A stretch of DNA of 64,000 nt, taken from the NCBI GenBank assembly GCA_025463005.1, contig JAOAPR010000248.1:2705-66704 (forward strand), written 5' to 3'. This DNA is from Bryobacterales bacterium (GTDB lineage Bacteria; Acidobacteriota; Terriglobia; Bryobacterales; Bryobacteraceae). Of the stretch, positions 548-43,705 are shown one piece after another (position 1 is the stretch's first letter; the number at the start of each line of letters is the position of its first letter). The position numbers and the translations under genes are program-made. The notes beneath the pieces are model-generated. The model had not been told where the DNA came from, searched no databases, and was given only the letters and a program-made list of their open reading frames with translations.

Positions 548-671
548 CATGGCAAGTTTTGGAAAATTTTGCGTGCTGAGTTGCGCTCGCACACCCAACC
601 GCAAAAGAGGTTTTTAGGGGCAGAGGGTCTTGAGGTCGTTAATCATTAAGTAGTTCGTGAAAGGGATAGCT

Positions 672-4370: not shown

Positions 4371-4503
4371 TGAAGCGCGCAAAACGGAGCGCGGCGCCAT
4401 CGTTTGGAGCCTCATCAATGGCGGGCGCCGCGCCCTTTGCGCTCCGAATTCCTGCGGTACGATGGTTCGGGTGAATTACCCAGAACGTGGAGGACTCAAC
4501 CAA

Positions 4504-6420
4504 ATGGCAAAATCCACCAAACGCTCCGTTGGCCGCCGCGGTTTCCTGAAAGGCGCCGCCGTCGGCGCGGCCGCCCTCGCCGCGAAGCCTCAGCTCAGCC
4601 ATGCTCAAGAAAATGCCCAGCAACCCGCGGCACGCGGAGGCAGCGCCACCGCGCAGACCCCCAGCGGATCGGCCGTCGCCCGCGAAACCGGCGCGGCGCG
4701 CCCGGCAGCCAATTCGCGCGTCATCGAGAATCCCGGCTCCGATTTCATGGTGGACGTCTTCAAGACGCTCAATATCGAGTATCTCGGCGCCAACCCCGGA
4801 TCCACGTTCGAATCGCTCCACGAGTCGCTCATCAATTACGGCGACAACAAAATGCCGGAGTTCCTCACCTGCACGCACGAGGAGTGCGCGGTAGCGATGG
4901 CCCACGGGTACGCCAAGATCGAAGGCAAGCCCATGATGGCCCTGATCCACGGCGATATCGGGCTGCAGCACGCCGGCATGGCAATTTACAACGCCTATTG
5001 CGACCGCGTGCCGATTTACATGGTCGTCGGCAATCATTCCGACGGCGCTGAGCGCAATCCTGGCGTCCAGAGTTATCACAGCGCGCAGGACCTGGGCGCA
5101 CTGGTTCGCGATTACACTAAGTGGGATGATCAGCCCTATTCGCTCGGAGCGTTTGCCGAATCCGCAGTGCGCGCTTACAAAATCGCCATGACCCCGCCGA
5201 TGGGCCCGGTCCTGATCGTGGCGGGAGCCGAGATTCAATCGCATGCCATGGAGCGACCCACGCCGCGGATTCCCAAGCTGGTCATGACCTCTCCTCCGGC
5301 CGGCGATATGGCCGCGGTGAACGAAGCCGCAAAGATGCTGGTGGCGGCCGAGCGTCCCCTGATCATCCCTGAGCGCTATGCCCGCACCCCTAACGGCATC
5401 AAACTTTTGGTCGAGCTGGCGGAGCTTTTGCAAGCGCCGGTCAATAACCGCGAGCGCATGAACTTCCCGAACCGGCATCCTCTATCTGGAAACGGCGGCC
5501 AGGGGTATCAGCCCGACGTCACGCTGGCCCTGGAAGTCCAGGACATCCTGACGGAGGCCCGCACCGCGCGCACGCGCAATGCCAAGGTCATCCAGATTTC
5601 TTCCGTCTCCCTGTCGCACAAGAGCAACATCCAGGATTTCGGCCACTATGCCGACATCGATCTCGACATCGGCGCCGACGCGGAAGCGACGCTCCCCTAT
5701 CTGATCGAAGCCTGCAAGAAGCTGATGACCGCGGACCGCCAGCGCACGCTCAAGGATCGCGGCGCAAAGCTCGCGGAAGCTCATCGCAAGAACCGCGAAG
5801 CGGATGTGGAAGCGCTCTCATGGGGCTGGAACGCGAGCCCGATCAGCGTCGGGCGCATTGCCGCGGAACTGTGGCCGTTGATCAAGAACGAAGACTGGTC
5901 GTTCGTTTCGCCGCAGGGCTTTGTCGGCAACTGGCCCAATCGCATCTGGAACATGGAGAAGCATTATCAGTACATCGGCGGCCAGGGAGCCGGAGGCATG
6001 GGCTACGGGGCTCCTGCTTCGGTTGGAGCGGCGCTGGCCAATCGCAAATATGGGCGCATCTCCATCAACATTCAGACCGACGGCGATTTCAACTACTCTC
6101 CCGGCGTTTTCTGGACCGCCGCGCATCACCGCATCCCGCTGTTGAGCATCATGCACAATAACCGGGGATATCATCAGGAAGTGATGTTCGTCGAACAGAT
6201 GGCGAGCGCCCACAATCGCGGCGCGGAACGGGCGGGCATCGGCACGAAGCTGTGGGATCCGGATATTAACTACGCGTCCATCGCTAAGGGCTATGGCCTC
6301 TATGCCGAAGGTCCAATCACCGATCCCAAGGACCTCGCACCGGCGCTTGCGCGCGGCGTCGAACGGGTCAAAAAGGGCGAGCCCGTACTGATCGACGTGG
6401 TTACTCAGCCGCGCGGCTGA
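4504..6420 (+). CDS. Thiamine-diphosphate-dependent enzyme (ALS/POX superfamily) with twin-arginine signal peptide, paralog 1
   Basis: ORF 4462..6420, with ATG 4504 preferred (MAKSTKRSVGRRGFLKGAAVGAAALAAKPQLSHA|QE is a Tat motif). THEECAVAMAHGYAK carries the cofactor-activating Glu. C-terminal ThDP motif GGQGAGGMGYGAPASVGAALA..IQTDGDFNYSPG..LLSIMHNNRGY. Confidence 0.85.
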   Translation: MAKSTKRSVGRRGFLKGAAVGAAALAAKPQLSHAQENAQQPAARGGSATAQTPSGSAVARETGAARPAANSRVIENPGSDFMVDVFKTLNIEYLGANPGSTFESLHESLINYGDNKMPEFLTCTHEECAVAMAHGYAKIEGKPMMALIHGDIGLQHAGMAIYNAYCDRVPIYMVVGNHSDGAERNPGVQSYHSAQDLGALVRDYTKWDDQPYSLGAFAESAVRAYKIAMTPPMGPVLIVAGAEIQSHAMERPTPRIPKLVMTSPPAGDMAAVNEAAKMLVAAERPLIIPERYARTPNGIKLLVELAELLQAPVNNRERMNFPNRHPLSGNGGQGYQPDVTLALEVQDILTEARTARTRNAKVIQISSVSLSHKSNIQDFGHYADIDLDIGADAEATLPYLIEACKKLMTADRQRTLKDRGAKLAEAHRKNREADVEALSWGWNASPISVGRIAAELWPLIKNEDWSFVSPQGFVGNWPNRIWNMEKHYQYIGGQGAGGMGYGAPASVGAALANRKYGRISINIQTDGDFNYSPGVFWTAAHHRIPLLSIMHNNRGYHQEVMFVEQMASAHNRGAERAGIGTKLWDPDINYASIAKGYGLYAEGPITDPKDLAPALARGVERVKKGEPVLIDVVTQPRG

Positions 6421-6809: not shown

Positions 6810-8708
6810 ATGGCGAAACTCAAGAACACTTCCGTCGGTCGTCGAGGATTTTTGAAGGGGGCAGCGGCTGGAGCGGCCGTCAGCGCGGCAACGCTGGTTA
6901 CTCCCCAGCTCACTGAAGCGCAACAGCAGGGGGCAGGCCGCGGCGGACGTGGCGGCGGTCAGGGCGGCGCACCCCAACCCGACGGCTCCGCGATCGCTCG
7001 CGAAGACGGAACGGCCCGGCCCGCACCAGTCTCCCGCATCGTCGAGAACCCCGGCTCCGACTACATGTGCGACGTCATAAAGGCGCTCGGCATCGAGTAC
7101 GTCTCCTTCAATCCCGGATCGAGTTTCGAAGGTCTGCACGAATCGCTCATCAACTACACCAAGAACAATCCGGAAATCATCACCTGCACGCACGAGGAAA
7201 ATGCCGTTGCAATGGCGCACGGCTACGCCAAAGCCTGCGGGAAGCCGATGCTCGCCCTGTTGCACGGAACTATCGGCGTGCAACACGCCGCGATGGCGAT
7301 CTACAACGCTTATGGCGACCGGGTGCCGATCGTGATGATTGCCGGGGTCGGCGATACGGCCGTTCCCGCCCATACCGCCGTCGACCTTGGGGCTATGGTG
7401 CGCGATTTCGTGAAATGGGATCACCAGCCGGATACGCTGACCGGTGTCGGCCAGGCGTTGATCCGCGCGTACAAACTGGCGATGACGCCGCCTATGGCGC
7501 CCGTACTGGTCACGGTACAAGCCGAGCTGCAGATGGGTGCGATGCCGGCGAACCGTCCGCAAGTTCCCAAATTCACCATGCCCTCAGCGCCCAGCGCCGA
7601 TCTGGCATCGGTGCGGCAGATCGCCAAAGATCTGGTGAACGCGACCAATCCGCGCATTGCCGCGGGACGCGTTCGCACGCAGGAGGGAATGGACCAGTTG
7701 GTGCAACTGGCCGATCTGCTGCAATGCCCTGTTGCCGGCGGTGGCGACCGGATGACCTTCCCGAATCGCCACCCTATGGCCGGCAACGGCGCGGGCGGAG
7801 CTGCTGACGTTATATTGAGTCTCGAAGCGGGTGGCGGCGGGGGCGGCGGACGAGGCGGCGCTGCAGGAGGGAAGACTATCGTCATCAGCACCGCGGAATT
7901 GCTTGCCACGCACAACTACAACATCAACGGCAACGGCGTGAACGGCGATGTCTACATCGCAGCCGATCCGGAAGCGACTCTTCCGGCGCTGATCGAGGAA
8001 GTGCAGAAGCTCATGACTCCCGATAAGAAACGATTGTTCGAGGATCGTGGCAAGAAGCATGCCGAAGCAAACCGCGCCGCGCGCGCCACAGCCGCGGAAG
8101 CAGCATCGGTGGGCTGGAACGCCAGCCCGGTCAGCCTGGCGCGCATCGCGGCCGAACTGTGGCCGCTGATCAAGAACGAGGACTGGTCCTACGTTTCCCC
8201 GCAAAATTTCGCCGGTAACTGGGCTAACCGCTTGTGGGACATGAAGAAGATTTACCACTATCTGGGAGGGCAGGGCGCGGGCGGCATGGGTTATGGCGCT
8301 CCGGCATCGGTAGGGGCGGCGCTGGCCAACAGAAAGAATGGCCGCATCTCTATCAACATCCAGACTGACGGCGACATGAATTACTCGCCGGGCATTCTGT
8401 GGACCGCCGCGCATCACCGCATCCCGCTGCTGAGCATCATGCACAACAACCGGGGGTATCACCAGGAAGTGATGTTTATCGCGCGCGCGGCCAGCATCCG
8501 CAACCGCGGCCAGGAGAATTCGCACATCGGCACGCGCCTGATCGATCCCAACATCGACTACGCCATGATGGCCAAAGCTTACGGGATGTATAGTGAAGGA
8601 CCCATTACCGATCCCAAGGATCTGGCGCCGGCATTTAAGCGCGGCATCGAGCGGGTCAAGAAAGGCGAGCCCGTGATGATTGATGTTGTCACGCAGCCTC
8701 GCGGCTAA
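6810..8708 (+). CDS. Thiamine-diphosphate-dependent enzyme with twin-arginine signal peptide, paralog 2
   Basis: MAKLKNTSVGRRGFLKGAAAGAAVSAATLVTPQLTEA|QQ is a Tat motif. THEENAVAMAHGYAK and IQTDGDMNYSPG..LLSIMHNNRGY are present. Collinear with 4504-6420 apart from Gly/Arg-rich insertions. Confidence 0.85.
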   Translation: MAKLKNTSVGRRGFLKGAAAGAAVSAATLVTPQLTEAQQQGAGRGGRGGGQGGAPQPDGSAIAREDGTARPAPVSRIVENPGSDYMCDVIKALGIEYVSFNPGSSFEGLHESLINYTKNNPEIITCTHEENAVAMAHGYAKACGKPMLALLHGTIGVQHAAMAIYNAYGDRVPIVMIAGVGDTAVPAHTAVDLGAMVRDFVKWDHQPDTLTGVGQALIRAYKLAMTPPMAPVLVTVQAELQMGAMPANRPQVPKFTMPSAPSADLASVRQIAKDLVNATNPRIAAGRVRTQEGMDQLVQLADLLQCPVAGGGDRMTFPNRHPMAGNGAGGAADVILSLEAGGGGGGGRGGAAGGKTIVISTAELLATHNYNINGNGVNGDVYIAADPEATLPALIEEVQKLMTPDKKRLFEDRGKKHAEANRAARATAAEAASVGWNASPVSLARIAAELWPLIKNEDWSYVSPQNFAGNWANRLWDMKKIYHYLGGQGAGGMGYGAPASVGAALANRKNGRISINIQTDGDMNYSPGILWTAAHHRIPLLSIMHNNRGYHQEVMFIARAASIRNRGQENSHIGTRLIDPNIDYAMMAKAYGMYSEGPITDPKDLAPAFKRGIERVKKGEPVMIDVVTQPRG

Positions 8709-8715
8709 GGAGATT

Positions 8716-9087
8716 ATGAAGAAGCTCGTATTCGGAATTCTTGCGCCAGCCTCCGCCTTGGGCTTGCTGGCGGTTTCCGCTCTTGCACAGCAGGGTGATG
8801 CCGGCCGTGGAAAGAAGATGTTCGTCGACTACAGTTGCTACGCCTGCCACGGCTTTTCGGGTCAGAACGGCCCCGGAAGGCGGCTGGTACCGATGAAAAT
8901 GGCGAACGTCGCCTTCACAGCCTACGTCCGCAGCCCTGGCACCAACCAGATGCCGTCGTATTCGGCGAAGGTTCTTACGGATGCGCAATTGGCGGACATT
9001 TGGGCCTACATAAAGACCCTGCCGGATTCACCCGAAGCCAAGGATATCCCGCTGGTCCAGCAACTCAAGGCTGAAGCCGGAAAATAA
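8716..9087 (+). CDS. Mono-haem c-type cytochrome (class I-like), secreted
   Basis: ATG 8716 is preceded by AAGGAG and lies 7 nt after the stop of the upstream ThDP enzyme. Signal peptide MKKLVFGILAPASALGLLAVSALA. Single CYACH haem motif and a downstream ..NQMPSY.. Met ligand candidate. Confidence 0.85.
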   Translation: MKKLVFGILAPASALGLLAVSALAQQGDAGRGKKMFVDYSCYACHGFSGQNGPGRRLVPMKMANVAFTAYVRSPGTNQMPSYSAKVLTDAQLADIWAYIKTLPDSPEAKDIPLVQQLKAEAGK

Positions 9088-10244: not shown

Positions 10245-11921
10245 ATGCGATTCCTTGCCTTCCTGTTAGCTGTGTCGGCGCTCTCCGCCCAGGACGCCGG
10301 CGTGACGCATGCCGACTGGCCGCACTACGGCGGCACGCAATTTTCCTGGCGCTATAGCGCACTTGACCAGGTCAACACTTCGAACGTCAAGAATCTCCTC
10401 CCTGCGTGGATTTTCCAAACGGGCGATTACACCGAGAACCTCGGGTCCACGCCCCTTGTGGTCGATGGCGTCATGTATCTTGTCTCCGCCGGCGCGCGCG
10501 TCTTCGCGCTCGATGCAGCTAAAGGGACACTGATCTGGCAGTATCGTTATCCCACTGCTCGCCCCGGCATCGCCGGGAGCCATTCCGATTTCATCCAGAA
10601 TCGCGGGGTCGCAGTCGGCGACGGGAAGGTCTTCTTCGGAACGAAAGATAATTTCGTGGTGGCCCTGGATCAAAAAACAGGCCATGAAGCATGGAAAGTC
10701 AGCGTCGACGATCCCAAGCAGTGCGGGTGCAACATCACAGCAGCGCCGCTTATCGTCAAGGACAAGGTCATCGTCGGCGGCAACGGAGGCGATCAGGCGC
10801 ATCGCGGCTATCTCACCGCCTTCTATACAAAAACCGGACGCGTCGCCTGGCGCTGGTACGTGGTGCCCGCGCCTGGCGAAAAGGGGAATGAAACCTGGAA
10901 AGGCGACAGTTGGCGCTACGGCGGGGGTGCACCGTGGCTCACCGGCTCCTTCGATCCTGACCTCAACTTGGTCTACTGGGGCACCGGCAACGCCGCTTCC
11001 GATTTCTATGACGCTGATCGTGTCGCTTCAGGCGCCAACAAGTCAAGGGACGTGAACCTCTATACAGCCAGCGTGGTCGCGCTCGACGCCGACACCGGTA
11101 AGCTCCGCTGGCACTTCCAGGAAGTCCCTGACGATGTGTGGGATTACGATTCCGCCTATGAAGTTCTCCTGATGGACAGGCAAATCCGCGGTCAGATGCG
11201 CAAGATTCTGGTCCACATGAACAAGAGCGGCTTGACGTTCGTGCTTGACCGCGTCACCGGCGAGTTTCTTAGCTCGTTCAATGTGCCCGAGATCTTCAAT
11301 TGGATCTCGGGTGTTACTGAAGACGGCAAGCTGGTAGGCCGCAACGAACCGGAATTGGGCAAAACCAAGAACTTCTGCCCCAGTACGGCCGGCGCCAAGA
11401 GCTGGAATTCCACGGCGTACTCGCCGCGCACGGGTTTGCTTTACGTTCCTGCCTTAGAGCTCTGCATGGATATCACTTCGAACGACAGCAAGCCCAGCGA
11501 AGGCCGCTTCTACATGAATGGCGATTTCCCCAGTCGCTTGCCGCCTAATCGCGCGACGTACAGTCACGTCGACGCCTGGGATCCGGTCACCGGGAAGCGA
11601 GTCTGGAGCGTGCCGTACAAGTACATCCTGCTTTCCTCCATGCTTGCCACTGCGGGTGACTTGGTCTTTACCGGCGATCCGGAAGGCAACTTCTTCGCGC
11701 TGGACGCGCGCAGCGGCAACAAGCTGTGGAACTTCCAGACGGGCGCCGGACACCGCGGCTCGGCGATCTCGTACGCGGTCAACGGCCGGCAATACATCGC
11801 GGCGACCACCGGATGGCAACAGACATTGGTCGGCGGCGCTATCGTCGGCGTGTTCCCCGAGGAGAGTTTTCGCGCCGGATCGACGCTGGTGGTGTTCGCG
11901 CTGCCGGAGGGATCACGATGA
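10245..11921 (+). CDS. PQQ-dependent dehydrogenase, methanol/ethanol family (8-bladed propeller quinoprotein)
   Basis: Signal peptide MRFLAFLLAVSALSAQ. DWPHYGGTQFSWRYSALDQVNTSNVKNLLPAWIF, ..WKGDSWRYGGGAPW..DPDLNLVYWGTGNA.. and ..VWDYDS.. are hallmark motifs of the family. Confidence 0.9.
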   Translation: MRFLAFLLAVSALSAQDAGVTHADWPHYGGTQFSWRYSALDQVNTSNVKNLLPAWIFQTGDYTENLGSTPLVVDGVMYLVSAGARVFALDAAKGTLIWQYRYPTARPGIAGSHSDFIQNRGVAVGDGKVFFGTKDNFVVALDQKTGHEAWKVSVDDPKQCGCNITAAPLIVKDKVIVGGNGGDQAHRGYLTAFYTKTGRVAWRWYVVPAPGEKGNETWKGDSWRYGGGAPWLTGSFDPDLNLVYWGTGNAASDFYDADRVASGANKSRDVNLYTASVVALDADTGKLRWHFQEVPDDVWDYDSAYEVLLMDRQIRGQMRKILVHMNKSGLTFVLDRVTGEFLSSFNVPEIFNWISGVTEDGKLVGRNEPELGKTKNFCPSTAGAKSWNSTAYSPRTGLLYVPALELCMDITSNDSKPSEGRFYMNGDFPSRLPPNRATYSHVDAWDPVTGKRVWSVPYKYILLSSMLATAGDLVFTGDPEGNFFALDARSGNKLWNFQTGAGHRGSAISYAVNGRQYIAATTGWQQTLVGGAIVGVFPEESFRAGSTLVVFALPEGSR

Positions 11922-17762: not shown

Positions 17763-18215
17763 ATGCGAAAAATATTGAAGAAGTTGCTTGCAACACCCGA
17801 CGACCCGACCCTCACTCTTGCCCGGATCATTCTGGCCGTCATCTTCTTTGCCCACGGATCTCAAAAGATGTTCGGGTTCTTCGGGGGCCGGGGAGTTTCG
17901 GGGACTATCGCGATCTTCCAGCAAACTATGGGTATCCCCGCGCCCTTGACGATTCTGGCGATGACCGCCGAAGTCTTCGGCGCCATCGGCCTATTCTTCG
18001 GCATGTTCAGCCGCATCGCCGCGCTAGGAGTCCTGGTGGTGATGATGGTAGCCCCATTCGCGAACCATCTCTACCCCAACTTCTTCATGAACTGGACTGG
18101 CCGCCAGGTGGGTGAAGGCTACGAATATCATCTTCTCGCGATCGCGCTGATCGTTACGATCCTGGTTCGGGGCGCCGGCGCCCTCTCGCTCGACCGCTCG
18201 ATTTCATCCAGGTAG
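17763..18215 (+). CDS. DoxX family membrane protein
   Basis: ATG 17763 lies within ORF 17559..18215. MRKILKKLL..LARIILAVIFFAHGSQKMFGFFGG.. is followed by 4 hydrophobic helices, which is the DoxX pattern. Confidence 0.8.
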   Translation: MRKILKKLLATPDDPTLTLARIILAVIFFAHGSQKMFGFFGGRGVSGTIAIFQQTMGIPAPLTILAMTAEVFGAIGLFFGMFSRIAALGVLVVMMVAPFANHLYPNFFMNWTGRQVGEGYEYHLLAIALIVTILVRGAGALSLDRSISSR

Positions 18216-19007: not shown

Positions 19008-20471
19008 TTAGAACGGATACTTCGCCGGCGTACCACTCACCGTAATCCACTGCCACTCGGTAAACTCATCCAGATTTGTCGTGCTCCCGAACCGCGATCC
19101 GTTCCCCGATGCTCCCATGCCGCCCATCGGAATTCCGGGATGATCCGCCACCGTCTGATCGTTGATGTGCACCATGCCGGCCTTGATCCGCCGGGCCATT
19201 CTCATCCCGCGGTCTACCGATCCGGTCTGGACCGCCGCCGCCAGGCCGTAGCCCGTCCCGTTGGCGAGCTCCACCGCTTCATCATCGTCCTCGGCGATCG
19301 TCACCGGCGCAACTGGCCCGAAAATCTCTTCGTCGTAGGCCCGCATGCCGACTTTCACGCTGCCCAGCACCGTCGGCTTGTAGAACAGACCCTCGTGAGT
19401 GCCGCCCGTCACCACTTTCGCGCCCGATTTCACTGAATCTTTGACGATCCCATCGACTCGATTCAGCTGCTTCTCGCTGATGAGCGGCCCGATCGCCACC
19501 TGCGCGCGAAATGGATCGCCCACCGGCAGCGCCGCCGCGTGTTCGGCCAGCTTTTTCATGTACTCGGCCGCGACCTTCTTATGCACGATATGACGGCTGG
19601 TGGCCATGCACACTTGCCCCTGGTGCAGGAACGATCCCCAAGCGCCGCATGAAGCCGCTGCATCCAGATCTGCGTCATCCAGGATGATCATCGGGCTGTT
19701 GCCGCCGAGCTCCAGCGAAACTTTCTTCAGCCCCTTGCCAGCCAGTTCGCCGACGCGACGCCCCACCGCGCTCGATCCCGTGAACGTGACCAGCCTCACT
19801 GCCGGCGCTGTGACCAGCGCCTCGCCCACTTCCGGTCCACCGGGAATCACGCTCAACACACCCGCCGGCAAGCCCGCCAGCTCGAACACCCGAGCCAGCA
19901 GGTACCCGCCCGTCACCGGAGTCTGATGATCCGGTTTCAGCACCACCGCATTACCCAACGCCAGCGCCGGGGCGACCGAGCGCATGGCCAGCACCAGCGG
20001 CACGTTCCATGGTGTGATCACGCTGACCACGCCGACCGGAACGCGTATCGCCATGCTCATCCGTTCCGGAGATGTGGGCGGCAGTATTTCACCGATGGGC
20101 TGGATCAAAATCGCGGCAGAATGGTATAGCTCACCCGTCGCGATCGCCACTTCGTAACCCGCCTTGGGGGCCACGCCGCCCGTCTCGCGGATGATGAAGT
20201 CCATGATCTCTTTCGAATAGCTCTCGATGATCCGAGCCGCATCGCGCATGATTCGCGCACGCTCTTCCGCCGGTTTAGCAGCCCATGCGGGCTGGGTCTT
20301 GGCAGCTCGCTCGGTCAGTTCCACTGCAAGCTCGGGCGTCCCGCCGCCTGCGGTGCCTAGCGATTCCCCGGTCGCCGGCTCACGCACAGGAATCGTCTTG
20401 GGCGCAGTTTTCCATTCGCCATCGAAATACTTGTTTTCCCAGATGGCGCTATCCAGAAGTTTGTCTGACAT
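19008..20471 (-). CDS. NAD(P)-dependent aldehyde dehydrogenase family protein
   Basis: 487 aa. ..VSLELGGNSPMII.. and ..FLHQGQVCMATSR.. (catalytic Cys region) are canonical ALDH motifs. No signal peptide. Confidence 0.9.
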   Translation of the reverse strand: MSDKLLDSAIWENKYFDGEWKTAPKTIPVREPATGESLGTAGGGTPELAVELTERAAKTQPAWAAKPAEERARIMRDAARIIESYSKEIMDFIIRETGGVAPKAGYEVAIATGELYHSAAILIQPIGEILPPTSPERMSMAIRVPVGVVSVITPWNVPLVLAMRSVAPALALGNAVVLKPDHQTPVTGGYLLARVFELAGLPAGVLSVIPGGPEVGEALVTAPAVRLVTFTGSSAVGRRVGELAGKGLKKVSLELGGNSPMIILDDADLDAAASCGAWGSFLHQGQVCMATSRHIVHKKVAAEYMKKLAEHAAALPVGDPFRAQVAIGPLISEKQLNRVDGIVKDSVKSGAKVVTGGTHEGLFYKPTVLGSVKVGMRAYDEEIFGPVAPVTIAEDDDEAVELANGTGYGLAAAVQTGSVDRGMRMARRIKAGMVHINDQTVADHPGIPMGGMGASGNGSRFGSTTNLDEFTEWQWITVSGTPAKYPF

Positions 20472-20475
20472 AAGT

Positions 20476-21258
20476 CTATTGTGCAGGTCTCACGAACAGA
20501 GTCGGATTCTTCAGCAGCTCCTCAAAGCGCTGGATATCCTGGTTGTCGGCGATGCACTCGTACTCGCGCAGCCTCTCCCCAGGCCGCAGCGAGAGGAACG
20601 AAGACGGCAGATTCCATTTCTTGGTGAATACCTTCGGATCTTCGATGAGCACATCGTAGGTGATCGTGTCGTAATCCACACGACGATACTGCTCGACCAC
20701 GTGCAGCGCATCGCTGTGAATCGACGCGCCGTTGCTCAGCCAGGTTTTGTCGTTGAACCCGACCACATCCACCACCAGCGTGTCGCCCTCCCAATGGCCT
20801 ACCGAATCTCCCATAAAAGATGGATCGATATCGTCCGGATGCCCGCGGCCATCGGTCGGAATCACGCGAAACGCGTGAAAAGTTTCGTACAGGAAGATCA
20901 CCTCATCCTTGGTCTGCACGATCTTGATCGGCAGCGGCATCGAAGTGATTCTCGGGACGCCTACCAGCAAGCACCGCCCGCTAGGGTCGTCGATGGACCT
21001 GCGGTCGCGGATCTCTTTCAGTCGCGGCTGGACCCAATCCTGATAAGGAGCAGGTTCCCGAGCCGCACCCTGAGTCGTCGCGGCATCCGGACGAGCCGCT
21101 TTCGCGTTATCGACGCCGATCGCAAACGACAATCCCGCCGCTCCGCCGCCTTGCCAGATACCCGATAAATCCGGTTTGCCGTCGGCGGTTTTCGGCACCG
21201 GCGGTTTTTGCGCCACCGCAAGAGAGACCCACAAAATCACAGGGATCAGGTGTTTCAA
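20476..21258 (-). CDS. Secreted hypothetical protein (partner 'B' of the duplicated two-gene cassette), copy 1
   Basis: TTG 21258 is preferred (AGGAGG 6 nt upstream; it overlaps the upstream stop as TTGA). Signal peptide LKHLIPVILWVSLAVAQ. Collinear with 42483-43292: DLSGIW/DLTGVW, DDPxGxC, GHPDD.DP, GxWExDTLVVDxVGFNDKxW, LHxVExY, EYxC. Confidence 0.75.
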   Translation of the reverse strand: MKHLIPVILWVSLAVAQKPPVPKTADGKPDLSGIWQGGGAAGLSFAIGVDNAKAARPDAATTQGAAREPAPYQDWVQPRLKEIRDRRSIDDPSGRCLLVGVPRITSMPLPIKIVQTKDEVIFLYETFHAFRVIPTDGRGHPDDIDPSFMGDSVGHWEGDTLVVDVVGFNDKTWLSNGASIHSDALHVVEQYRRVDYDTITYDVLIEDPKVFTKKWNLPSSFLSLRPGERLREYECIADNQDIQRFEELLKNPTLFVRPAQ

Positions 21259-21647
21259 TTGCCACCTCCTGTTCCCGCAGGAGGACCGGACAAAATCTTC
21301 TTGCCATCTGCCAGCGTTATTTCGCGCGAATGCGCCAGGTTCATGCCGTTCCGCGCGCGCCACGCGAACACCGTAACGCTGTCGCCGATCTTCAGCGTCA
21401 CATCGCGCTTCCAGCCCTGGCGAACCAGCATGTTGGGCGGGAACCCCTCGAATTTCCACTCCTCGACCTTGCCCTTTTCATCCGTCACATCCATATAAAA
21501 ATGCATGTGCGGATTCTCCCATTCGACCTTGGTAACCACACCCTTCAGCGTGATGGGTTTTTCGCCGTCGTACTCGGCTGCGAAGGAGTGGTGGGCGAAC
21601 GCCGGGGCCGCGATTACCAGAACAGCCAGGATCAAAAGGGCTCGCAT
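21255..21647 (-). CDS. Small secreted DUF6152-like protein (partner 'A' of the cassette), copy 1
   Basis: ATG 21647 lies within ORF 21255..21788. Signal peptide MRALLILAVLVIAAPAFA, so the mature N-terminus is HHSFAAEYD. ..LKGVVTKVEWENPHMHFYMDV.. Paralog of 43304-43705. Confidence 0.8.
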   Translation of the reverse strand: MRALLILAVLVIAAPAFAHHSFAAEYDGEKPITLKGVVTKVEWENPHMHFYMDVTDEKGKVEEWKFEGFPPNMLVRQGWKRDVTLKIGDSVTVFAWRARNGMNLAHSREITLADGKKILSGPPAGTGGGN

Positions 21648-21674
21648 CGAATAAACCCCCAAGCCAGTATACAA

Positions 21675-21750
21675 GGGGACTGCCTCCAATTTCGATGAAC
21701 GAACTCCACCGCTGTCCGGAGCATTCCCCGAAATTGGCTGGCTGTCCCCC
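21675..21750. repeat. Palindromic ~76-nt intergenic repeat, copy b
   Basis: GGGGACTGCCTCCAATTTCGATGAA...CCCCGAAATTGGCTGGCTGTCCCC lies between the divergent cassette and thrC starts. Confidence 0.8.
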
Positions 21751-21790: not shown

Positions 21791-22963
21791 ATGCCTAACG
21801 TCAGCCATCTCGAATGCAGCCTCTGCGCTACCCGATTTGAACCCAACCAGATTCACAACCTGTGCTCCTGCGGCGGAACGCTCTACGTGCGTTACGATCT
21901 CCCGGCGATCAAAGCAACCTGGACCCGTAACAGCCTGCGATCCGCCCGTCCCGATCTCTGGCGCTACCTTCCCATTCTTCCGCCCCAGCAGCCCGAATCC
22001 ATCGTATCTCTCGGCGAAGGCATGACCCCGCTGATCCGCGCCCGTCGCCTGGGCGGCACTATCGGCGCGCAACAGCTTTGGGTCAAAGACGAGGGGCTGA
22101 ATCCCACGGCGTCTTTCAAGGCCCGCGGCATGACTACCGCGATCACCATGGCGCGCGAGCTCGGCATCCGCAAGATCGCCATCCCGTCCGCTGGAAACGC
22201 CGCCAGCGCTGCGGCCGCCTATGCCGCCGCCGCGGGAATGGAAGCGCACATCTTCATGCCGGCCGACGTTCCCCAAGCCAACTACATCGAGTCCAAAACG
22301 CTCGGCGCAATCGTCACGCTGGTAGACGGGCTCATCAGCGATTGCGCCCGCATCGTCGCCGAGCGTAAGGATCGCGAAGGCTGGTTCGATATGAGCACCC
22401 TCAAAGAGCCCTACCGCGTCGAAGGCAAGAAAACGATGGGTTACGAAGTCGCCGAACAATTCGATTGGGAGCTGCCCGATGCGATCTTTTATCCCACCGG
22501 CGGCGGTGTCGGCATGATCGGCATGTGGAAAGCGTTCGACGAGATGGAACAGCTCGGCTGGATTTCCTCTAAGCGTCCTAAGATGATTGCCGTCCAAGCC
22601 GCGGGCTGCCAGCCGATTGTCCAGGCGTTCGAGCAGAGCGCATCGCGCGCCGAATTCTGGCAGAACGCCTCCACCCTTGCCGCTGGCCTGCGCGTTCCCA
22701 AGCCGCTCGGCGACGCGCTGATCTTGAATATCATCCGCGCGAGCAAGGGAACCGCCATCGCCATCAGCGACGAAGAAATTCTTGATGGCGGCCGGGAGCT
22801 CGCGTCCCTGGAAGGAATCTTCGCGGCGCCCGAGGGTGCTGCCTGTGTGACCGCTGCGCGCAAACTGATCGCGAATCAGTTTCTGGAACCTACCGATCGC
22901 ATCGTACTCTACAACACCGGCTCCGGCCTGAAATATCTCGATGCTTACTCGCCTCGTAAGTAG
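21791..22963 (+). CDS. thrC: Threonine synthase (short form with N-terminal Cys-rich ribbon)
   Basis: LECSLCATRF..NLCSCGGTLYVRYDL, the PLP-lysine motif NPTASFKARGM, and ..PSAGNAASAAAAYAA.. and ..YNTGSGLKY, typical of ThrC. Confidence 0.85.
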   Translation: MPNVSHLECSLCATRFEPNQIHNLCSCGGTLYVRYDLPAIKATWTRNSLRSARPDLWRYLPILPPQQPESIVSLGEGMTPLIRARRLGGTIGAQQLWVKDEGLNPTASFKARGMTTAITMARELGIRKIAIPSAGNAASAAAAYAAAAGMEAHIFMPADVPQANYIESKTLGAIVTLVDGLISDCARIVAERKDREGWFDMSTLKEPYRVEGKKTMGYEVAEQFDWELPDAIFYPTGGGVGMIGMWKAFDEMEQLGWISSKRPKMIAVQAAGCQPIVQAFEQSASRAEFWQNASTLAAGLRVPKPLGDALILNIIRASKGTAIAISDEEILDGGRELASLEGIFAAPEGAACVTAARKLIANQFLEPTDRIVLYNTGSGLKYLDAYSPRK

Positions 22964-22982
22964 GTTTGGCGTCCTTTACAAT

Positions 22983-24335
22983 GTGGGCGTGGGTATACCC
23001 CGCCGCGACTTCCTCCTCCTCGCCGCCGCCGCTGTCCTACGAGGCGAAGATCGTCCCAACCGCGACATGCTCACCCGCTCTGTTCGCCCCGAGGATCTTG
23101 AGATGCCGCTATCCGGTTTCTCGGACTACCTCACCCCGGCCGAGCATTTCTTCGTTCGTACGCACGTCTACGTTCCCTCCGTAAATCTCAACGAATGGCG
23201 CCTCAAGGTCGATGGCCAGGTCGCAACGCCGCTCGCTCTCACCATAGACGACCTGAAAAAACTGCCCGCCGTCGAACTCATCAGCGTTCTTGAATGCGCC
23301 GGTAACGGTCGCGCCTTCTACCAGCCTCCTGTGCCTGGCCTGCAATGGGGCAACGGCGCCGTCGGCAACGCGCGCTGGCGCGGGGTGCGCCTGGCCGACG
23401 TGCTCAAACGCGCCCGCTTGGAACCCTCAGCCCGCGAGATTCTTTTCGATGGCGCCGATGTTCCGCTCGGCACGATGCCGGATTTTCAACGTTCCATCCC
23501 GTTGAACAAAGCCCTTGACCCCGACACGCTTCTCGCATACGAAATGAACGGCGAGACGCTCCCCGTGAAACACGGGTTCCCTTTGCGGGTGATAGCTCCC
23601 GGGTGGGCGGGCGATTCCTGGGTCAAGTGGCTCACCTCCATTCGTGTTTTCGACCAGGAAAACGACGGTTTTTGGATGAAGAGCGCCTATCGCCACCCCG
23701 GACGGCCCGTAGCTCCCGGCACGCCTGTCCCCGCCGACCGTATGCAGCCGGTCACCAGCCTGCGTGTTAAGAGTGTCATCGCTGGGCCGCTCGATGGCGC
23801 GCAACTCGATCCCGGGCGTCCCACGACTATCCGTGGCGTGGCTTGGGGAGGTGAGCCAATTACTGCGGTCGAAGTCAGCGTCGACGGCGGCCGTTCGTGG
23901 AAACCGGCAGCGTTGCAATCCAACCAGCGCACACGCTTCGGCTGGCGCCAGTGGGAATTTCCCTGGACGCCGCCACAAGCCGCTTACTACACTATCCTCG
24001 CGAGGGCCCGCGACGCGTCTGGCAACACCCAACCGCTCGACCAGGAATGGAACCCGTCCGGCTATCTCTGGAACGTGGTTCCGCGAGTCCATGTGAATGT
24101 GGGGGACTCCGCCCCGGCGCCTTCCGTCACGTCACAAACTACACCCCAGGCCCCGCCTCCGCCGCCACCCGCGTTCAGCAACTGCCTGGTCTGTCACAAC
24201 GACGACGTCATCCACCAGCAGCGCCTTACGCGCACGCAGTGGAATGCCGAGATCAATAAGATGACCGGCTGGGGCGCCCGGGTCGACGATGCCAGCCGCA
24301 ATGCACTCCTCGATTACCTCGACAAGTTGCGCTGA
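22983..24335 (+). CDS. Sulfite-oxidase-family molybdopterin oxidoreductase fused to a C-terminal c-type cytochrome domain
   Basis: GTG 22983 or 22989 is preferred because ORF start 22941 overlaps thrC. Tat-like GIPRRDFLLLAAAAVL. ..HFFVRTH.., the Mo-ligand motif SVLECAGNGR, and ..GFPLRVIAPGW.G...VKWL.. The C-terminus has CLVCH followed by ..QQRLTRTQWNAEINKM. Confidence 0.8.
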   Translation: MGVGIPRRDFLLLAAAAVLRGEDRPNRDMLTRSVRPEDLEMPLSGFSDYLTPAEHFFVRTHVYVPSVNLNEWRLKVDGQVATPLALTIDDLKKLPAVELISVLECAGNGRAFYQPPVPGLQWGNGAVGNARWRGVRLADVLKRARLEPSAREILFDGADVPLGTMPDFQRSIPLNKALDPDTLLAYEMNGETLPVKHGFPLRVIAPGWAGDSWVKWLTSIRVFDQENDGFWMKSAYRHPGRPVAPGTPVPADRMQPVTSLRVKSVIAGPLDGAQLDPGRPTTIRGVAWGGEPITAVEVSVDGGRSWKPAALQSNQRTRFGWRQWEFPWTPPQAAYYTILARARDASGNTQPLDQEWNPSGYLWNVVPRVHVNVGDSAPAPSVTSQTTPQAPPPPPPAFSNCLVCHNDDVIHQQRLTRTQWNAEINKMTGWGARVDDASRNALLDYLDKLR

Positions 24336-24338
24336 GCT

Positions 24339-27275
24339 CTAGAACGTGATCTTTGCCGCGAGCTGTAAGATGCGCGGATCGAAGCTCGACGTGGGCGTCA
24401 GGAATGCGGCATTCGGCGTGAAGACCCCAGTGGCTGCCGAGAAGCTGTATTGCGACGTCGTGATGGCATTGAAGTTCACGTGATTGGGCAAGTTGAAGGC
24501 CTCGAAGATCAGCTTCAATGCTGCGCGTTCCTTGTACAAAGCGATATCGCGACTGATCCGGATATCCAATTGGGCGAATCCGGGCGCTTCGAAAGTATTG
24601 CGTCCGACTCCCGGCGGACGATCCGAACTGCTGTTGGCGTCATTGTTGGGGTCGCCGCTTCCAACCCCAGCCGTCAGCGGACGTCCGCTTTGGAGCGTAG
24701 TGATCAATGAGAACTGATAGCCACGTAGAACCGCCCGCGTGATGGGGTTCGAGAGCGAAGCTCCATAGTTGATGTTCCAGATCCCGGACAGCACGAAGCG
24801 ATGGCGAATATCCGCGTTGGCCCGTCCGCGATCGGCATTCGGGTTTAGCGTGTCCTGCACGTTCTTGCTGTCGTCCGTACCCACGACTACAGAGGTAAAA
24901 TCCGGCCTGTCATCGATCGCCTTAGAGAACGTATAGGAGGTTTGCACCTGGAAGTTCTGCGTGAAGCGCTTGGAAAGCTGGATGAATCCGCCGTGATAGA
25001 TGGAATCGGCGCCGCTGTCGAACATGCTGATCCGCCCAAATGCCGGATTTACCCGGCCGGGATGCCGATAATACGTCATAGGAGTTCCGTTGGGGAGCGT
25101 GCCCTGTAAGGCCACGGCCGGAAGCAGGTTGATATCGCGCGTCCGCGTGAGGTGTTCGCCCCGCACTCCCAAATAACCGAGCGTAACTGCGTAGTCCCGG
25201 CCGAACTGCCGTTCCAGATTGAAGCTCCACTGGTGCGTCACCGGCTGCACGTAGTCCGGCGCGAACACATAGATATCGGGCGTCCGATTCAATGCCGGCG
25301 GGGCTGAGAGGATGCTGGGATAGGTAGGGATATTGGAGAACAGCGTGAAGGTGGGGACCTGGATGCCATTCTGAGTGAAGGCTGTGCCGGTCAGAATGCT
25401 GGGCGTCCTTCCATAGAAGTTCCCGTATCCGCCGCGGATTACCATATTGCCGCGGTTCGATAGTTTGTATGCGAACCCGAAGCGCCCTGCCAGATTATTG
25501 GTATCCAGATTGATCTTGCTGGTATCGAGACCCATGGCGGCAAGACCGGGATTGGGGTTTTTAACGGGCGGAGCTGCGTAGTCGAACAGGTCGTAGCGGA
25601 CGCCGTAGTTCAGCGTCAGGCGCTCTGTCACGCGCCAGGAATCCTGTGCATAAAAACCGTATTCTCCGGCGTTGGGGCGCGAGAGAGGTCCGTCAGTGTT
25701 GGGTCCGGCGAATGCCTGCGTGAAGCTGAACGGGTTGTTATTGGCGAGATCCGCATAGCTGTTGAACGTAAACGATCCGCTGAAATTCCCGGGGAAAAAG
25801 TTGTCGATGCGCTGCCAGATCAAATCTGCGCCTGCCTTAAAGTTGTGCTTTCCACGAACTTGGGATAAACTTTCCGCCACCTGATACGTCTTCGCGTTGG
25901 TATAACGCGGGCTGAAATTATTTCTTCCGAAGCTGAGCACCGTCGTGCCGCCCTGTCGTAAAACCACTTCCGGAGCCGCAGAATTTGCTTCGCCGGGCTC
26001 GTTGTCGCGCGTGTAAGTGAAGCGCGATTCGAGAAGTGTGCTCGGTGACAGCACGAAGGTGTGCGTGCCAGAGATGTTATCCGTTGTCACTGTTGCGTTA
26101 CCGGTATGGCCCTGCGCACTGGTCTGCCCGCCGTTTTCGTAATTCACGCCGGTGAAACGATTCGCGTTGTAGCGCACGCTCAGGCGCTGGTCGCTGGAGA
26201 GATTGAAATCCACCTTCCCTAGGTAGACGTTATTGTTCAGGCTCTGAGCGTAGGGTGTCAGGTATTGCTGGATCAGCGCGAAACCCGCCTGCGAGGCGGC
26301 GTCGGCCGGAGCCTTGGCGGCCGGGATCACGGTTACAGGAGAGTTATTCCGCTGGCCATCGTAATCGAAAAAGAAAAATACTTTGTTCTTCAATACCGGT
26401 CCGCCGATGTTGCCGCCAAACTGGTTGAAGTGATAGTTTCGCTTGGGCGCGCCGATCCGGTTGTTCTCCCAACTGTTCGCGTTGAGTCCCTTATCGCGAA
26501 AGAACTCGAATACCGTCCCGTGAAATTGGTTTGTGCCGCTCTTGGTGATCGCGTTGATCACGCCGCCGCCGGCCCGCCCTATCTCGGCGGCATAACTATT
26601 AGTGGACACCTGAAATTCCTGAATCGCATCCTGGCTGAAGCTGTATGGACTTCGGCCGGTTCCCGCGCGGCCCGTCGATTGACCAAAGAATGTGTTGTTG
26701 GCATCGGAACCGTCTACCTGTAAGCTGTTCGCCGTGCCTCGCTGGCCGCCAAAAGAGAAGTCCCCCGAACGGCTCGGATCTCGGATCACGCCGGGCGCAG
26801 TCAGCGCGATGTCCAGTATGTTCCTTCCATTAACGGGGAGCTGTTCCACCGCCTGGCTGGTGATTGTCGTGGATGTGGCCGACCGCGTCGTCTCAACTAC
26901 GGGCGTTTCCGAAATGACGTCGACCGAATCGGACGTGGCGCCGATTTCCAGTTTTTGATCGAGCGTCACGTTGCCACCCACTGTGAGCGACACTTGGCTC
27001 AGCTTGGCTGTCTTGAACCCCGTCTTCTCCACCGCAACGTCATAGGCTCCCACCGGCAGTGATGCGAAACTATAGACGCCGGCGTTGCTCGTCACCGTCG
27101 TCCGCGTCAATCCGGTAGCGGTTTGAGTTGCCGTGACTTTTGCGTCGGCAATCACTGCTCCCGACGCATCTGTGATCGTTCCATTAAGCGTGGCGCTCCC
27201 GATCTGCGATTGTCCGTTCGACAATCCAGCGAGTAGGCACACCCCGAGTGCCGCGAAGGCGAGTTTTGAAAGCAT
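24339..27275 (-). CDS. TonB-dependent receptor with carboxypeptidase-regulatory-like N-terminal domain
   Basis: Signal peptide MLSKLAFAALGVCLLAGLSNGQ. ..LNGTITDASGAVIADAKVTATQ..GVYSFASLPVGAYDV.. 978 aa, ending ..AAKITF with a terminal Phe. Confidence 0.9.
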   Translation of the reverse strand: MLSKLAFAALGVCLLAGLSNGQSQIGSATLNGTITDASGAVIADAKVTATQTATGLTRTTVTSNAGVYSFASLPVGAYDVAVEKTGFKTAKLSQVSLTVGGNVTLDQKLEIGATSDSVDVISETPVVETTRSATSTTITSQAVEQLPVNGRNILDIALTAPGVIRDPSRSGDFSFGGQRGTANSLQVDGSDANNTFFGQSTGRAGTGRSPYSFSQDAIQEFQVSTNSYAAEIGRAGGGVINAITKSGTNQFHGTVFEFFRDKGLNANSWENNRIGAPKRNYHFNQFGGNIGGPVLKNKVFFFFDYDGQRNNSPVTVIPAAKAPADAASQAGFALIQQYLTPYAQSLNNNVYLGKVDFNLSSDQRLSVRYNANRFTGVNYENGGQTSAQGHTGNATVTTDNISGTHTFVLSPSTLLESRFTYTRDNEPGEANSAAPEVVLRQGGTTVLSFGRNNFSPRYTNAKTYQVAESLSQVRGKHNFKAGADLIWQRIDNFFPGNFSGSFTFNSYADLANNNPFSFTQAFAGPNTDGPLSRPNAGEYGFYAQDSWRVTERLTLNYGVRYDLFDYAAPPVKNPNPGLAAMGLDTSKINLDTNNLAGRFGFAYKLSNRGNMVIRGGYGNFYGRTPSILTGTAFTQNGIQVPTFTLFSNIPTYPSILSAPPALNRTPDIYVFAPDYVQPVTHQWSFNLERQFGRDYAVTLGYLGVRGEHLTRTRDINLLPAVALQGTLPNGTPMTYYRHPGRVNPAFGRISMFDSGADSIYHGGFIQLSKRFTQNFQVQTSYTFSKAIDDRPDFTSVVVGTDDSKNVQDTLNPNADRGRANADIRHRFVLSGIWNINYGASLSNPITRAVLRGYQFSLITTLQSGRPLTAGVGSGDPNNDANSSSDRPPGVGRNTFEAPGFAQLDIRISRDIALYKERAALKLIFEAFNLPNHVNFNAITTSQYSFSAATGVFTPNAAFLTPTSSFDPRILQLAAKITF

Positions 27276-42090: not shown

Positions 42091-42486
42091 ATGGCGACCT
42101 TCGGACTAATTGAGTATGGGGACGCTTCGCCCGAGGTGCGCGCGGTGTACGACGATATCATGGCGACGCGCAAGACCGACTGGGTGAACAATTTCTGGAA
42201 GGCCCTGGCGCACGATCCTGTGGCGCTCAAGCGAACCTGGGAGACCACCAAGCAGGTGATGGGCGCCGGCGCCCTGGATCCGCTCACCAAGGAACTGATC
42301 TACCTCGCGGTGAGCATGAGCAACCAGTGTGATTACTGCGTGGCGTCGCACACTGCGGGTGCGCGCTCCAAGGGCATGACAGACGACCAGCTCAAAGAAT
42401 TGATCGCCGTCATGGGGTTCGCCAATGCGAACAATCGAATCGTCGCGGGTTATCAGGTCGAGATCGACGAGCGATTCAAGACTTAG
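42091..42486 (+). CDS. Carboxymuconolactone decarboxylase/AhpD-like family protein
   Basis: ..LTKELIYLAVSMSNQCDYCVASHT.. contains the CxxC of the AhpD core. 131 aa. Confidence 0.85.
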   Translation: MATFGLIEYGDASPEVRAVYDDIMATRKTDWVNNFWKALAHDPVALKRTWETTKQVMGAGALDPLTKELIYLAVSMSNQCDYCVASHTAGARSKGMTDDQLKELIAVMGFANANNRIVAGYQVEIDERFKT

Positions 42487-43292: not shown

Positions 43293-43303
43293 GTGGATCT
43301 CTC

Positions 43304-43705
43304 CTACTTCACGTCGGGCGGCGGGGCGGCCATGAACGTCAATTTGGTGCCGTCGGATTTCTGGATGGTTTGGGCGCTGGCGGTGTTGGTGCCGTCCTTG
43401 GCTGGGGTGGCGACGACCTCAACGTGGTCGCCTTCCTTTAGCGAATGCCGGGTCCAGCCGTTCCGTTGCATCATGTTCGGGCTGGCGAGCTCCAGGTTCC
43501 AATTCGCCACTTTACCCTTTGGGTCGGTCACATCGAGGTAGAAATGGGCGTGCGGATTGGTCCACTCGAACTTCGTGACGACGCCTCTTAATTCGACCTT
43601 TTTGCTCGAGTCGTACTCGGCTGCAAAGGAATGATGTGCGATGGCCGGGAACCCCAGGATCAGCAGTCCGGCGCCTGCCGCGAAAACGCTCAGCGTAAGT
43701 TTCAA
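43304..43705 (-). CDS. Small secreted DUF6152-like protein (cassette partner 'A'), copy 2
   Basis: TTG start. Signal peptide ..LLILGFPAIA, so the mature N-terminus is HHSFAAEYD. ..LRGVVTKFEWTNPHAHFYLDV.. 11 nt upstream of partner B. Confidence 0.8.
   Translation of the reverse strand: MKLTLSVFAAGAGLLILGFPAIAHHSFAAEYDSSKKVELRGVVTKFEWTNPHAHFYLDVTDPKGKVANWNLELASPNMMQRNGWTRHSLKEGDHVEVVATPAKDGTNTASAQTIQKSDGTKLTFMAAPPPDVK

Follow-up and report, generated by a model that had tools for sequence, protein, structure and literature searches.

What is the role of two adjacent genes, here called A and B, which occur twice in a 64,000-nucleotide stretch of DNA from a Bryobacterales bacterium (GenBank assembly GCA_025463005.1, contig JAOAPR010000248.1, positions 2,705 to 66,704), and the products of which both carry signal peptides? 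This stretch, called the window below, comes from a metagenome-assembled genome of the phylum Acidobacteriota. A is a member of a catalogued protein family without known function, DUF6152 (Pfam PF19649), B is a member of none, and no component of the system described here is homologous to a characterised protein. No mention of DUF6152, PF19649 or DUF6644, a family of membrane proteins linked to A and B, was found in the literature searched, nor of a histidine brace combined with the terms OB-fold and periplasmic; the initial annotation of the window had likewise stated that neither A nor B has a described function. The best explanation of our results is that A and B are soluble exported subunits of a widespread cell-envelope system without characterised function. 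Going one step further, we tentatively favour the view that A and B are the two subunits of a periplasmic metalloprotein which takes part in redox chemistry, in which the metal is held at the N-terminus of A and the A-B complex is linked to the membrane; we regard this as a serious possibility that may well turn out to be wrong.

The first copy of the gene pair and its immediate surroundings comprise the following features.

21255-21647, minus strand: gene A, copy 1 (A1), DUF6152 protein of 130 amino acids, Pfam PF19649 with E 1e-30.
21588-21593, minus strand: codons of His19 and His20, the first two residues of predicted mature A1, read from the window sequence.
21507-21515, minus strand: Asn45-Pro46-His47 (NPH) loop of A1, predicted to join strands 1 and 2 of a barrel, located by alignments.
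20476-21258, minus strand: gene B, copy 1 (B1), exported protein of 260 amino acids from a family without Pfam model.
19008-20471, minus strand: aldehyde dehydrogenase (ALDH), Pfam Aldedh with E 2e-151.
21666-21695, minus strand: promoter-like TCGAAA-18-TATACT, 19 nucleotides upstream of the A1 ATG, from a consensus scan; a weak match, of a kind not more numerous here than in shuffled sequence.

The layout of this copy had been given correctly to the base in the initial annotation. A1 starts with a Sec signal peptide of 18 residues, MRALLILAVLVIAAPAFA, ending in AFA, and its predicted mature N-terminus reads HHSFAAEYD. The start codon of B1 (TTG, 21258-21256) overlaps the stop codon of A1 (TGA, 21257-21255) and is preceded, at a spacing of 6 nucleotides, by AGGAGG at 21270-21265. 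B1 carries its own Sec-type signal peptide (...SLAVA/QK), in accordance with the earlier claim that both proteins are secreted, and the B1 protein deposited at NCBI has an identical start (100% identity over 100% coverage). After the B1 stop codon (TAG, 20478-20476) only four nucleotides (ACTT) remain before the ATG of the ALDH gene at 20471, which is probably co-transcribed with A1 and B1.

The assignment of A to DUF6152, proposed before any database search, is firmly supported by Pfam, in which A1 and A2, the product of the second copy, reach 106 and 114 bits against a gathering threshold of 27 bits (E 1e-30 and 4e-33, respectively); A homologues also carry PF19649 in precomputed annotation. 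The most conspicuous trait of the family is its mature N-terminus. We collected 240 A homologues from two distant branches, typified by HHSFAAEYD in Acidobacteria and HHSFAMFD in Proteobacteria. In 238 of them, two consecutive histidines follow at least 12 residues of signal peptide; the residue at position -1 is Ala, Gly or Ser in all 238, and position -3 is occupied by Ala, Val, Leu, Ser or Thr in nearly all. The remaining two are mis-started gene calls in which the motif is still present. As searches of this kind can favour shared words, an independent sample is of more weight: among A genes found in metagenome contigs through a neighbouring DUF6644 gene, with no use of A sequence, all 37 with an intact N-terminus encode Ala or Gly followed by His-His. 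Divergent second copies of A keep the two histidines as well (HHGTGMYD, HHAVASAYD, HHSLAGMYA). Cleavage directly before His-His, predicted at the outset, thus fits signal-peptidase sequence rules throughout the family, and the conservation of the histidines is equally evident.

A third histidine that is conserved family-wide in the alignments, and like His-His across phyla, is His47 of the NPH loop. The initial annotation had described an invariant NPH(M/A)HFY motif; its NPH part holds across the family, with [WYF]x[NAST]PH present in 34 of the 37 independently found genes, while the second His and the FY vary. Mature A contains essentially no cysteine and about 4.7 histidines. It is plausible that A binds a metal. 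Twin-arginine (Tat) signal peptides were also considered as a general route of export and rejected: only 2 of the signal peptides of 240 A proteins look Tat-like and none of those of 270 B proteins, although one subgroup with B preceding A has RR signals.

In its AlphaFold model (mean pLDDT, predicted local distance difference test score, of 80), A1 forms a barrel of five strands and one short helix. The best matches of this model in the PDB, found by Foldseek, are OB (oligonucleotide/oligosaccharide-binding) folds, namely the anticodon-binding domain of LysRS, SSB and PriB, with E down to 2.5e-4, and we predict an OB fold for A. The N-terminal tail bearing His-His has pLDDT below 50, which would fit a tail that stays disordered until binding occurs.

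Is the pairing of A with B peculiar to this genome? We scanned GTDB, with one genome for each species, and obtained at least 582 confirmed A relatives; the best 80 loci were analysed with flanks of up to 6 kb on each side. Most of these loci belong to Bryobacterales, Vicinamibacterales and other Acidobacteriota, and some to Gammaproteobacteria and Alphaproteobacteria. They contain 95 A genes. B comes directly after A in 75 cases and before it in 6, while 7 A genes stand alone and 7 lie too near the locus end to be judged, so that B adjoins A for 81 of the 88 judgeable genes. A start codon in the B frame overlaps the A stop codon by 4 or 1 nucleotides in 45 of 79 A-then-B pairs, against a chance rate which we estimate at about 5%, and lies within 15 nucleotides of it in 65 of the 79. 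Adjacent A and B genes are also present on plasmids of cultured Novosphingobium, Sphingobium and Croceibacterium. The adjacency and the overlaps of stop and start codons together indicate that A and B form one unit, which is conserved and coupled in translation. Because several genomes possess more than one locus, the pair is often multi-copy. In this way all three features on which the first interpretation of the locus had been staked, namely the predicted cleavage site directly before His-His, the conservation of the histidines and the occurrence of the A-B pair beyond this genome, are borne out.

The ALDH gene behaves differently. Co-transcription with ALDH, probable at copy 1, does not extend to the family as a general property: ALDH genes occur within the flanks of A in about 8 of the 80 loci, in few lineages and in two orders (A-B-ALDH here and ALDH-Amidohydro_2-A(-B) elsewhere), and the gene directly downstream of A-B is a different one in almost every acidobacterial locus. 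ALDH as a general functional partner was rejected on these grounds. In five loci (L002, L004, L010, L035 and L037), an ALDH-Amidohydro_2-A operon without B faces a block of anti-sigma factor, ECF (extracytoplasmic function) sigma factor and peroxiredoxin genes; the sister loci L068 and L069 retain B. These operons show that A is able to persist without an adjacent B. Another variant operon, present in three Bryobacterales loci (L018, L025 and L027), consists of a gene for a 362-residue polytopic membrane protein without Pfam match, followed by B and then A. In all three, B has an extra N-terminal Ig-like region and A has a twin-arginine signal (SRRAFL or RRGFL) and the mature start HHGTGMYD; two DUF6644 genes stand between B and A in L018 and L027.

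B represents a large family: among 1.84 billion cluster representatives, 12,190 clusters at 50% identity were found with E of 1e-3 or lower. Neither B1 nor B2 matches a Pfam or NCBIfam model, three profiles including a diverse one found no sequence relative in the PDB, and 63 diverse members pointed to no consistent Pfam family, only to five unrelated ones with one member each (best E 0.0025). In the model of B (pLDDT 80), about eight strands make up an antiparallel beta-barrel, to which long helical additions are joined at the N- and C-termini. The best PDB matches of the model in Foldseek are SAHS, CRABP-II, UnaG, streptavidin and nitrophorin, with E of 0.01-0.3, none reaching 0.001, and the TM-scores against calycins (0.45-0.55 on target) are weak; the model thus hints at a calycin-like barrel. 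Like calycins (lipocalins, FABP/CRABP, avidins and nitrophorins), B has about eight strands in its model and a conserved N-terminal GxW, as in structurally conserved region 1 of lipocalins. Unlike them, it has helical additions, a conserved pair of cysteines, conserved charged barrel residues and no Pfam lipocalin match. The conserved residues are G33xW35, C96, E125, R131, H140, S152, W156, GDTLVV-D (D164), E189, R190, D207, E232 and C235, of which C96, an invariant residue, probably forms a disulfide with C235. Tandem B-B fusions are common in the family. A metagenome protein of 330 amino acids (P0275) combines a signal peptide, a cbb3-type monohaem cytochrome c (PF13442, E 2e-15) and a full B domain; it is the sole direct physical link found between B and electron transfer. 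An A-B fusion was considered as proof of interaction and set aside: the only example (P0320) is a chimera of 222 amino acids with internal deletions, which may be an artefact.

What, then, is the wider setting of the pair? The initial annotation had placed it in the context of ALDH alone, and this proved too narrow: the commonest wider setting is a tandem pair of DUF6644 genes, and genes for c-type cytochromes recur as well. Of six proteobacterial plasmid loci that were approached from A or B, five have a tandem DUF6644 pair beside these genes (Novosphingobium humi, Sphingobium sp. TomTYG65, Novosphingobium PP1Y, Novosphingobium KACC 22771 and Sinorhizobium mexicanum, the last with the order A-B-D-D, where D stands for DUF6644, behind an HbpS-like gene of the same operon in strain ITTG R7). 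In the reverse test, metagenome contigs were searched with DUF6644 alone. All 33 resulting loci of at least 5 kb contain a tandem DUF6644 pair, 24 contain A, 25 contain B and 22 contain both, most commonly in the tight order D-D-B-A. The genomic link between DUF6644, A and B runs in both directions. DUF6644 proteins have four hydrophobic segments, with an invariant histidine in the first one, and further invariant residues R49, K102 and R156. A gene for a cytochrome c with a C-terminal CxxCH directly adjoins the DUF6644 pair in four loci (L083, L105, L130 and L145, N. humi being among them) and lies elsewhere in L097. The cytochrome type encoded at 5622-6128 of L083 is small, exported or lipoprotein-like, ends with a C-terminal CE(S/A)CH (class-II type) and has no Pfam match.

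Some other neighbours of the DUF6644 loci were followed up. A protein encoded upstream of B in N. humi, with a weak GH39 match, was rejected as a fifth component, being not homologous to the 426-residue protein encoded at the same position in L092; the latter looks, by sequence features only, like a membrane-bound regulator. An MsrP-type molybdenum methionine-sulfoxide reductase is encoded after the DUF6644 pair in L128, L156 and L157, and in L128 an MsrQ-like short open reading frame (ORF) comes next. MsrP after D-D as a sign that DUF6644 replaces MsrQ is a weak case, given a gap of about 460 nucleotides and this short ORF after MsrP. Genes for peroxiredoxins and for CMD/AhpD-like and HbpS-like proteins recur near A-B loci, and YceI-like genes, judged by sequence features only, are present in several A-B/DUF6644 loci.

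The window itself contains a DUF6644 pair, not far from the second copy of A and B.

43304-43705, minus strand: gene A, copy 2 (A2), DUF6152 protein of 133 amino acids, Pfam PF19649 with E 4e-33.
42483-43292, minus strand: gene B, copy 2 (B2), exported protein of 269 amino acids, with a GTG start 11 nucleotides past the A2 stop codon.
43839-47512, plus strand: TonB-dependent receptor (CarboxypepD_reg and outer-membrane barrel), divergent from A2-B2 and split in three ORFs.
47513-47995, minus strand: DUF6644 membrane protein, first of a tandem pair, Pfam PF20349 with E 5e-17 and 63 bits.
48019-48669, minus strand: DUF6644 membrane protein, second of the tandem pair, Pfam E 2e-5 and 25.4 bits.
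42091-42486, plus strand: CMD/AhpD-like protein, convergent with B2, Pfam CMD with E 9e-21.

A second A-B pair at 42483-43705 had already been noticed, and sequence comparison confirms that the two copies are true paralogues: A1 and A2 share 53% identity (E 1e-43), B1 and B2 share 38% (E 2e-45). The signal peptide of A2 ends in FPAIA and its mature N-terminus is again HHSFAAEYD, the codons of the two histidines lying at 43636-43631. The DUF6644 pair stands about 4 kb from A2-B2, beyond the split receptor gene. Its second product falls just under the 27-bit cut-off for DUF6644, yet it aligns with the annotated DUF6644 pairs of other loci; the true start of this gene is probably near 48510. The three receptor ORFs (43839-45095, 45347-46714 and 46760-47512) match positions 1-133, 241-596 and 622-830 of the OMP_b-brl_4 profile, and a receptor gene broken in this way is either a pseudogene or a product of frameshift errors in the assembly. 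The CMD gene is a possible recurrent neighbour of A-B, a second case adjoining A in L092; this family is linked to thiol/peroxide redox chemistry. Copy 1, by comparison, is a stand-alone A-B pair joined to ALDH, one of many stand-alone pairs in Acidobacteria.

Further genes of the window are recorded here as side observations. Near copy 1 are a DoxX membrane protein gene (17772-18215, plus strand), of a family linked to thiol/peroxide redox chemistry, and a gene for a sulfite-oxidase-type molybdenum enzyme (Oxidored_molyb and Mo-co_dimer; 22941-24335, plus strand) with a C-terminal CxxCH cytochrome c tail. The latter gene overlaps the end of a pyridoxal-phosphate enzyme gene (21791-22963) and sits between copy 1 and a TonB-dependent receptor gene (24339-27275). 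Another receptor gene (657-4304, plus strand) is followed by genes for two thiamine-pyrophosphate enzymes (4462-6420 and 6810-8708) and a cytochrome c (8680-9087). Both thiamine-pyrophosphate enzymes bear twin-arginine RRGFLKG export signals, exported enzymes of this type being unusual, and relatives of their genes adjoin A-B in L062 and L009. A dehydrogenase dependent on pyrroloquinoline quinone is encoded at 10245-11921 (plus strand). Such genes lie in the A-B flanks of 10 of the 80 related loci; their recurrence near acidobacterial A-B may reflect only their abundance in these genomes.

How would these proteins work together? In the reading that we tentatively favour, A and B would act, in the four-gene cluster common outside Acidobacteria, with two DUF6644 proteins of the inner membrane. 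The free N-terminal amine of mature A together with the imidazoles of its first and second residues (His1 and His2), perhaps also His47 or residues of B, would hold a transition metal, for which Cu(II) is the likeliest candidate. A and B would form a 1:1 complex, B providing a pocket for a substrate or cofactor, and this complex would perform redox chemistry in the periplasm, with c-type cytochromes as its electron-transfer partners and the DUF6644 pair as a further one in loci that have it. The invariant histidine in a membrane helix of each DUF6644 protein recalls, by analogy, the two-subunit haem-b anchor SdhC/SdhD. A more specific picture can be drawn, in which A-B would be a new periplasmic metallo-oxidoreductase with a histidine-brace-like, probably copper, centre on the OB subunit at the mouth of a calycin-like barrel, wired to the quinone pool through cytochromes and a single-haem DUF6644 anchor, and in which acidobacterial paralogues would oxidise diverse imported or lignin-derived organic compounds; in this detailed form we consider it unlikely.

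Several observations weigh against the redox metalloprotein. In the OB model of A, the tail starts at one end of the long strand 1 and the NPH loop lies at the other, so that His19, His20 and His47 may not come together at one site inside A; a site to which B also contributes would be compatible with this layout. B has only one strongly conserved histidine, and the fusion of B with cytochrome c was seen once among 150 representatives. The two genes do not always occur side by side, as 7 of 88 A genes have no adjacent B and 15 of 97 B genes no adjacent A. DUF6644 genes lie within the flanks in only 8 of 89 loci (the best 80 and 9 found by other routes), most acidobacterial A-B pairs having none within up to 6 kb on each side, and one invariant histidine per DUF6644 subunit suits metal or proton handling as well as haem. 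Finally, no copper-homeostasis genes (cop, cus, cue) were seen in the examined A-B loci, and the adjacent regulators are of IclR, TetR, MarR, LysR and GntR types, for which organic molecules, not metals, are the usual signals.

Known systems offer partial parallels. The copper sites of CopC, YcnI and PCuAC-type proteins are marked by an N-terminal histidine that arises when the signal peptide is cut off (review PMC10952591), and the initial annotation had compared A with such histidine-brace proteins. Like these (lytic polysaccharide monooxygenases (LPMOs) AA9-AA17, CopC, PmoF1/PCuAC, YcnI/DUF1775 and X325/Bim1), A is predicted to be exported and to expose a conserved His1 upon cleavage, and it has a further conserved histidine downstream, in NPH; many bacterial members also act with a membrane partner. 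In a histidine brace, copper is held by three nitrogens in a T-shape, and the conserved His20 and His47 are candidates for the second histidine that this would require in A. Unlike the known brace proteins, A has a predicted OB fold in place of an Ig-like or cupredoxin-like beta-sandwich, a second invariant histidine at mature position 2 and no copper genes nearby. None of the known histidine-brace families that the review (PMC10952591) names has this fold, and a comparison of A with E. coli CopC/YobA revealed no similarity (hhalign probability 0.2%). The comparison thus stands for His1 at the level of sequence and fails for fold or homology to LPMO, CopC, PmoB or YcnI; with its predicted OB fold and no similarity to CopC, A fits no known histidine-brace family.

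CusF, the periplasmic Cu(I)/Ag(I) chaperone of E. coli, comes nearer in fold: it is small and periplasmic like A, has an OB fold, and its mature N-terminus is also rich in histidine (NEHHHE). The hhalign comparison of A with CusF covers the whole OB domain (69 columns) with E 0.002, a weak result with a probability of 13%, and a Pfam scan of A1 and A2 gave no CusF match. The HHD of CusF aligns with Y51-M52-D53 of A and not with H47, and the metal ligands of CusF, which we take to be His36, Met47, Met49 and Trp44, do not align with conserved residues of A. The gene of CusF is part of an RND (resistance-nodulation-division) efflux operon, unlike that of A, the partners of which are B and DUF6644. 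In layout, the system resembles CopC-CopD (YobA-YebZ-YebY) and YcnI-YcnJ, where a periplasmic protein with N-terminal histidine is combined with one or more polytopic membrane proteins and an extra periplasmic protein. Unlike CopD, DUF6644 is represented by two separate four-helix proteins, and B is unrelated to YebY. A profile of 14 DUF6644 sequences aligns with E. coli YebZ/CopD at an hhalign probability of 0.1%, and DUF6644 has no Pfam CopD match at E of 5 or lower; the identification of DUF6644 as CopD and of A as CopC was rejected on these probabilities.

The haem-b anchor SdhC/SdhD is composed of two small membrane subunits with one invariant histidine each, and the DUF6644 pair recalls it in layout only, as the order D-D-B-A recalls sdhCDAB. 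A lipocalin-like barrel encoded beside a four-helix membrane protein is likewise known from YceI and cytochrome b561 (YceJ), again a likeness of layout only. No sequence similarity was found between A-B-DUF6644 and either YceI-cytochrome b561 or SdhC/SdhD. We rate the A-B-DUF6644 system as lying outside the known kinds of system, with a function that is still hypothetical, and its likeness to CopC-CopD-YebY, YceI-cytochrome b561 and sdhCDAB as analogy.

Could A and B instead carry organic molecules? In TonB-dependent uptake, the two might shuttle or process ligands, B being a lipocalin-type carrier from the outer-membrane receptor to a transporter of the inner membrane (the DUF6644 pair, an SSF or an MFS protein), the substrate for example a lignin-derived aromatic or organosulfur compound, and A an adaptor with its His-His tail as a docking element for a partner, without a catalytic metal. 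The calycin-like model of B with its lipocalin-style GxW is in keeping with this, as are the organic-molecule types of regulators and the catabolic neighbours: an intradiol dioxygenase directly after B (L082), Amidohydro_2 with ALDH and MFS, LigB with SnoaL, and TauD with sulfonate genes. Diverse substrates would also be suggested by the large number of paralogues within a genome. TonB-dependent receptor genes, frequent neighbours in Proteobacteria, lie in or beside seven loci (L084, L085, L086, L087, L092, L094 and L097) and copy 2 of the window, and L094 has the order ECF sigma factor-FecR-receptor-B-receptor-A-B-SSF transporter-MarR. In the mostly acidobacterial set, however, receptors are near A-B in about 10 of 80 loci, no more than expected in receptor-rich genomes (the window alone has three in 64 kb), and many 14-kb D-D-B-A loci have none; a receptor as core part of the system was rejected for Acidobacteria and for these D-D-B-A loci. 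Invariant charged barrel residues and an invariant His-His would be unusual in a simple carrier of hydrophobic ligands, and the fusion to cytochrome c and the cytochrome c neighbours would stay unexplained. We regard the shuttle as conceivable, on balance rather doubtful. Trafficking of copper or another metal in the manner of CopC-CopD, YcnI-YcnJ or CusF, with A as a metallochaperone that binds Cu(II) at its N-terminal His-His and hands it to DUF6644 as inner-membrane importer, and B as an accessory comparable to YebY, would fit the histidine made by cleavage, which is shared with CopC, YcnI and PCuAC-type sites (review PMC10952591), a small, periplasmic, Cys-free A with predicted OB fold and weak CusF profile similarity, and a layout parallel to E. 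coli yobA-yebZ-yebY. It is made improbable by the lack of detectable homology between DUF6644 and CopD/YebZ or A and CopC/YobA, by the conserved histidines of A that do not coincide with the presumed CusF ligands, by the loci, in which copper sensors, P-type ATPases and multicopper oxidases do not recur and the regulators are not of metal-sensing types, and by the several A-B pairs per genome and the very large B family, which fit metal homeostasis poorly.

A free N-terminus may also serve inhibition. The inhibitory domain of TIMP is an OB fold, in which the free N-terminal residue chelates the zinc of the target enzyme. By analogy with TIMP or with the protease inhibitor Inh of Pseudomonas, the processed N-terminus of A would cap a metal site of B or of another enzyme and so restrain a periplasmic enzyme that could do harm, and A and B would be an inhibitor or regulator pair. 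The predicted OB fold with a flexible, invariant N-terminal tail would suit such a role, and tight translational coupling is typical of enzyme-inhibitor pairs. B, however, has no recognisable hydrolase or peptidase signature, conservation together with a membrane pair and cytochromes would not be needed, and A genes without B exist, all of which makes this a very improbable explanation. Compared with these alternatives, the periplasmic metalloprotein with a redox role is the reading that we prefer.

Our results describe a frequent linkage of three families without assigned function, DUF6152, DUF6644 and B, across Acidobacteriota and Proteobacteria. The A-B pair is multi-copy in soil Acidobacteria, a phylum that dominates in soils and is still little understood, and cultured carriers are at hand in Novosphingobium humi, Sphingobium sp. 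TomTYG65, Sinorhizobium mexicanum and Croceibacterium atlanticum. Even if A-B proved to be a carrier or a chaperone, thousands of "hypothetical proteins" would become annotated. Should A bind copper and the system prove redox-active, the small set of histidine-brace proteins would gain a new scaffold, and the system may present a new route for periplasmic oxidative processing of organic matter.

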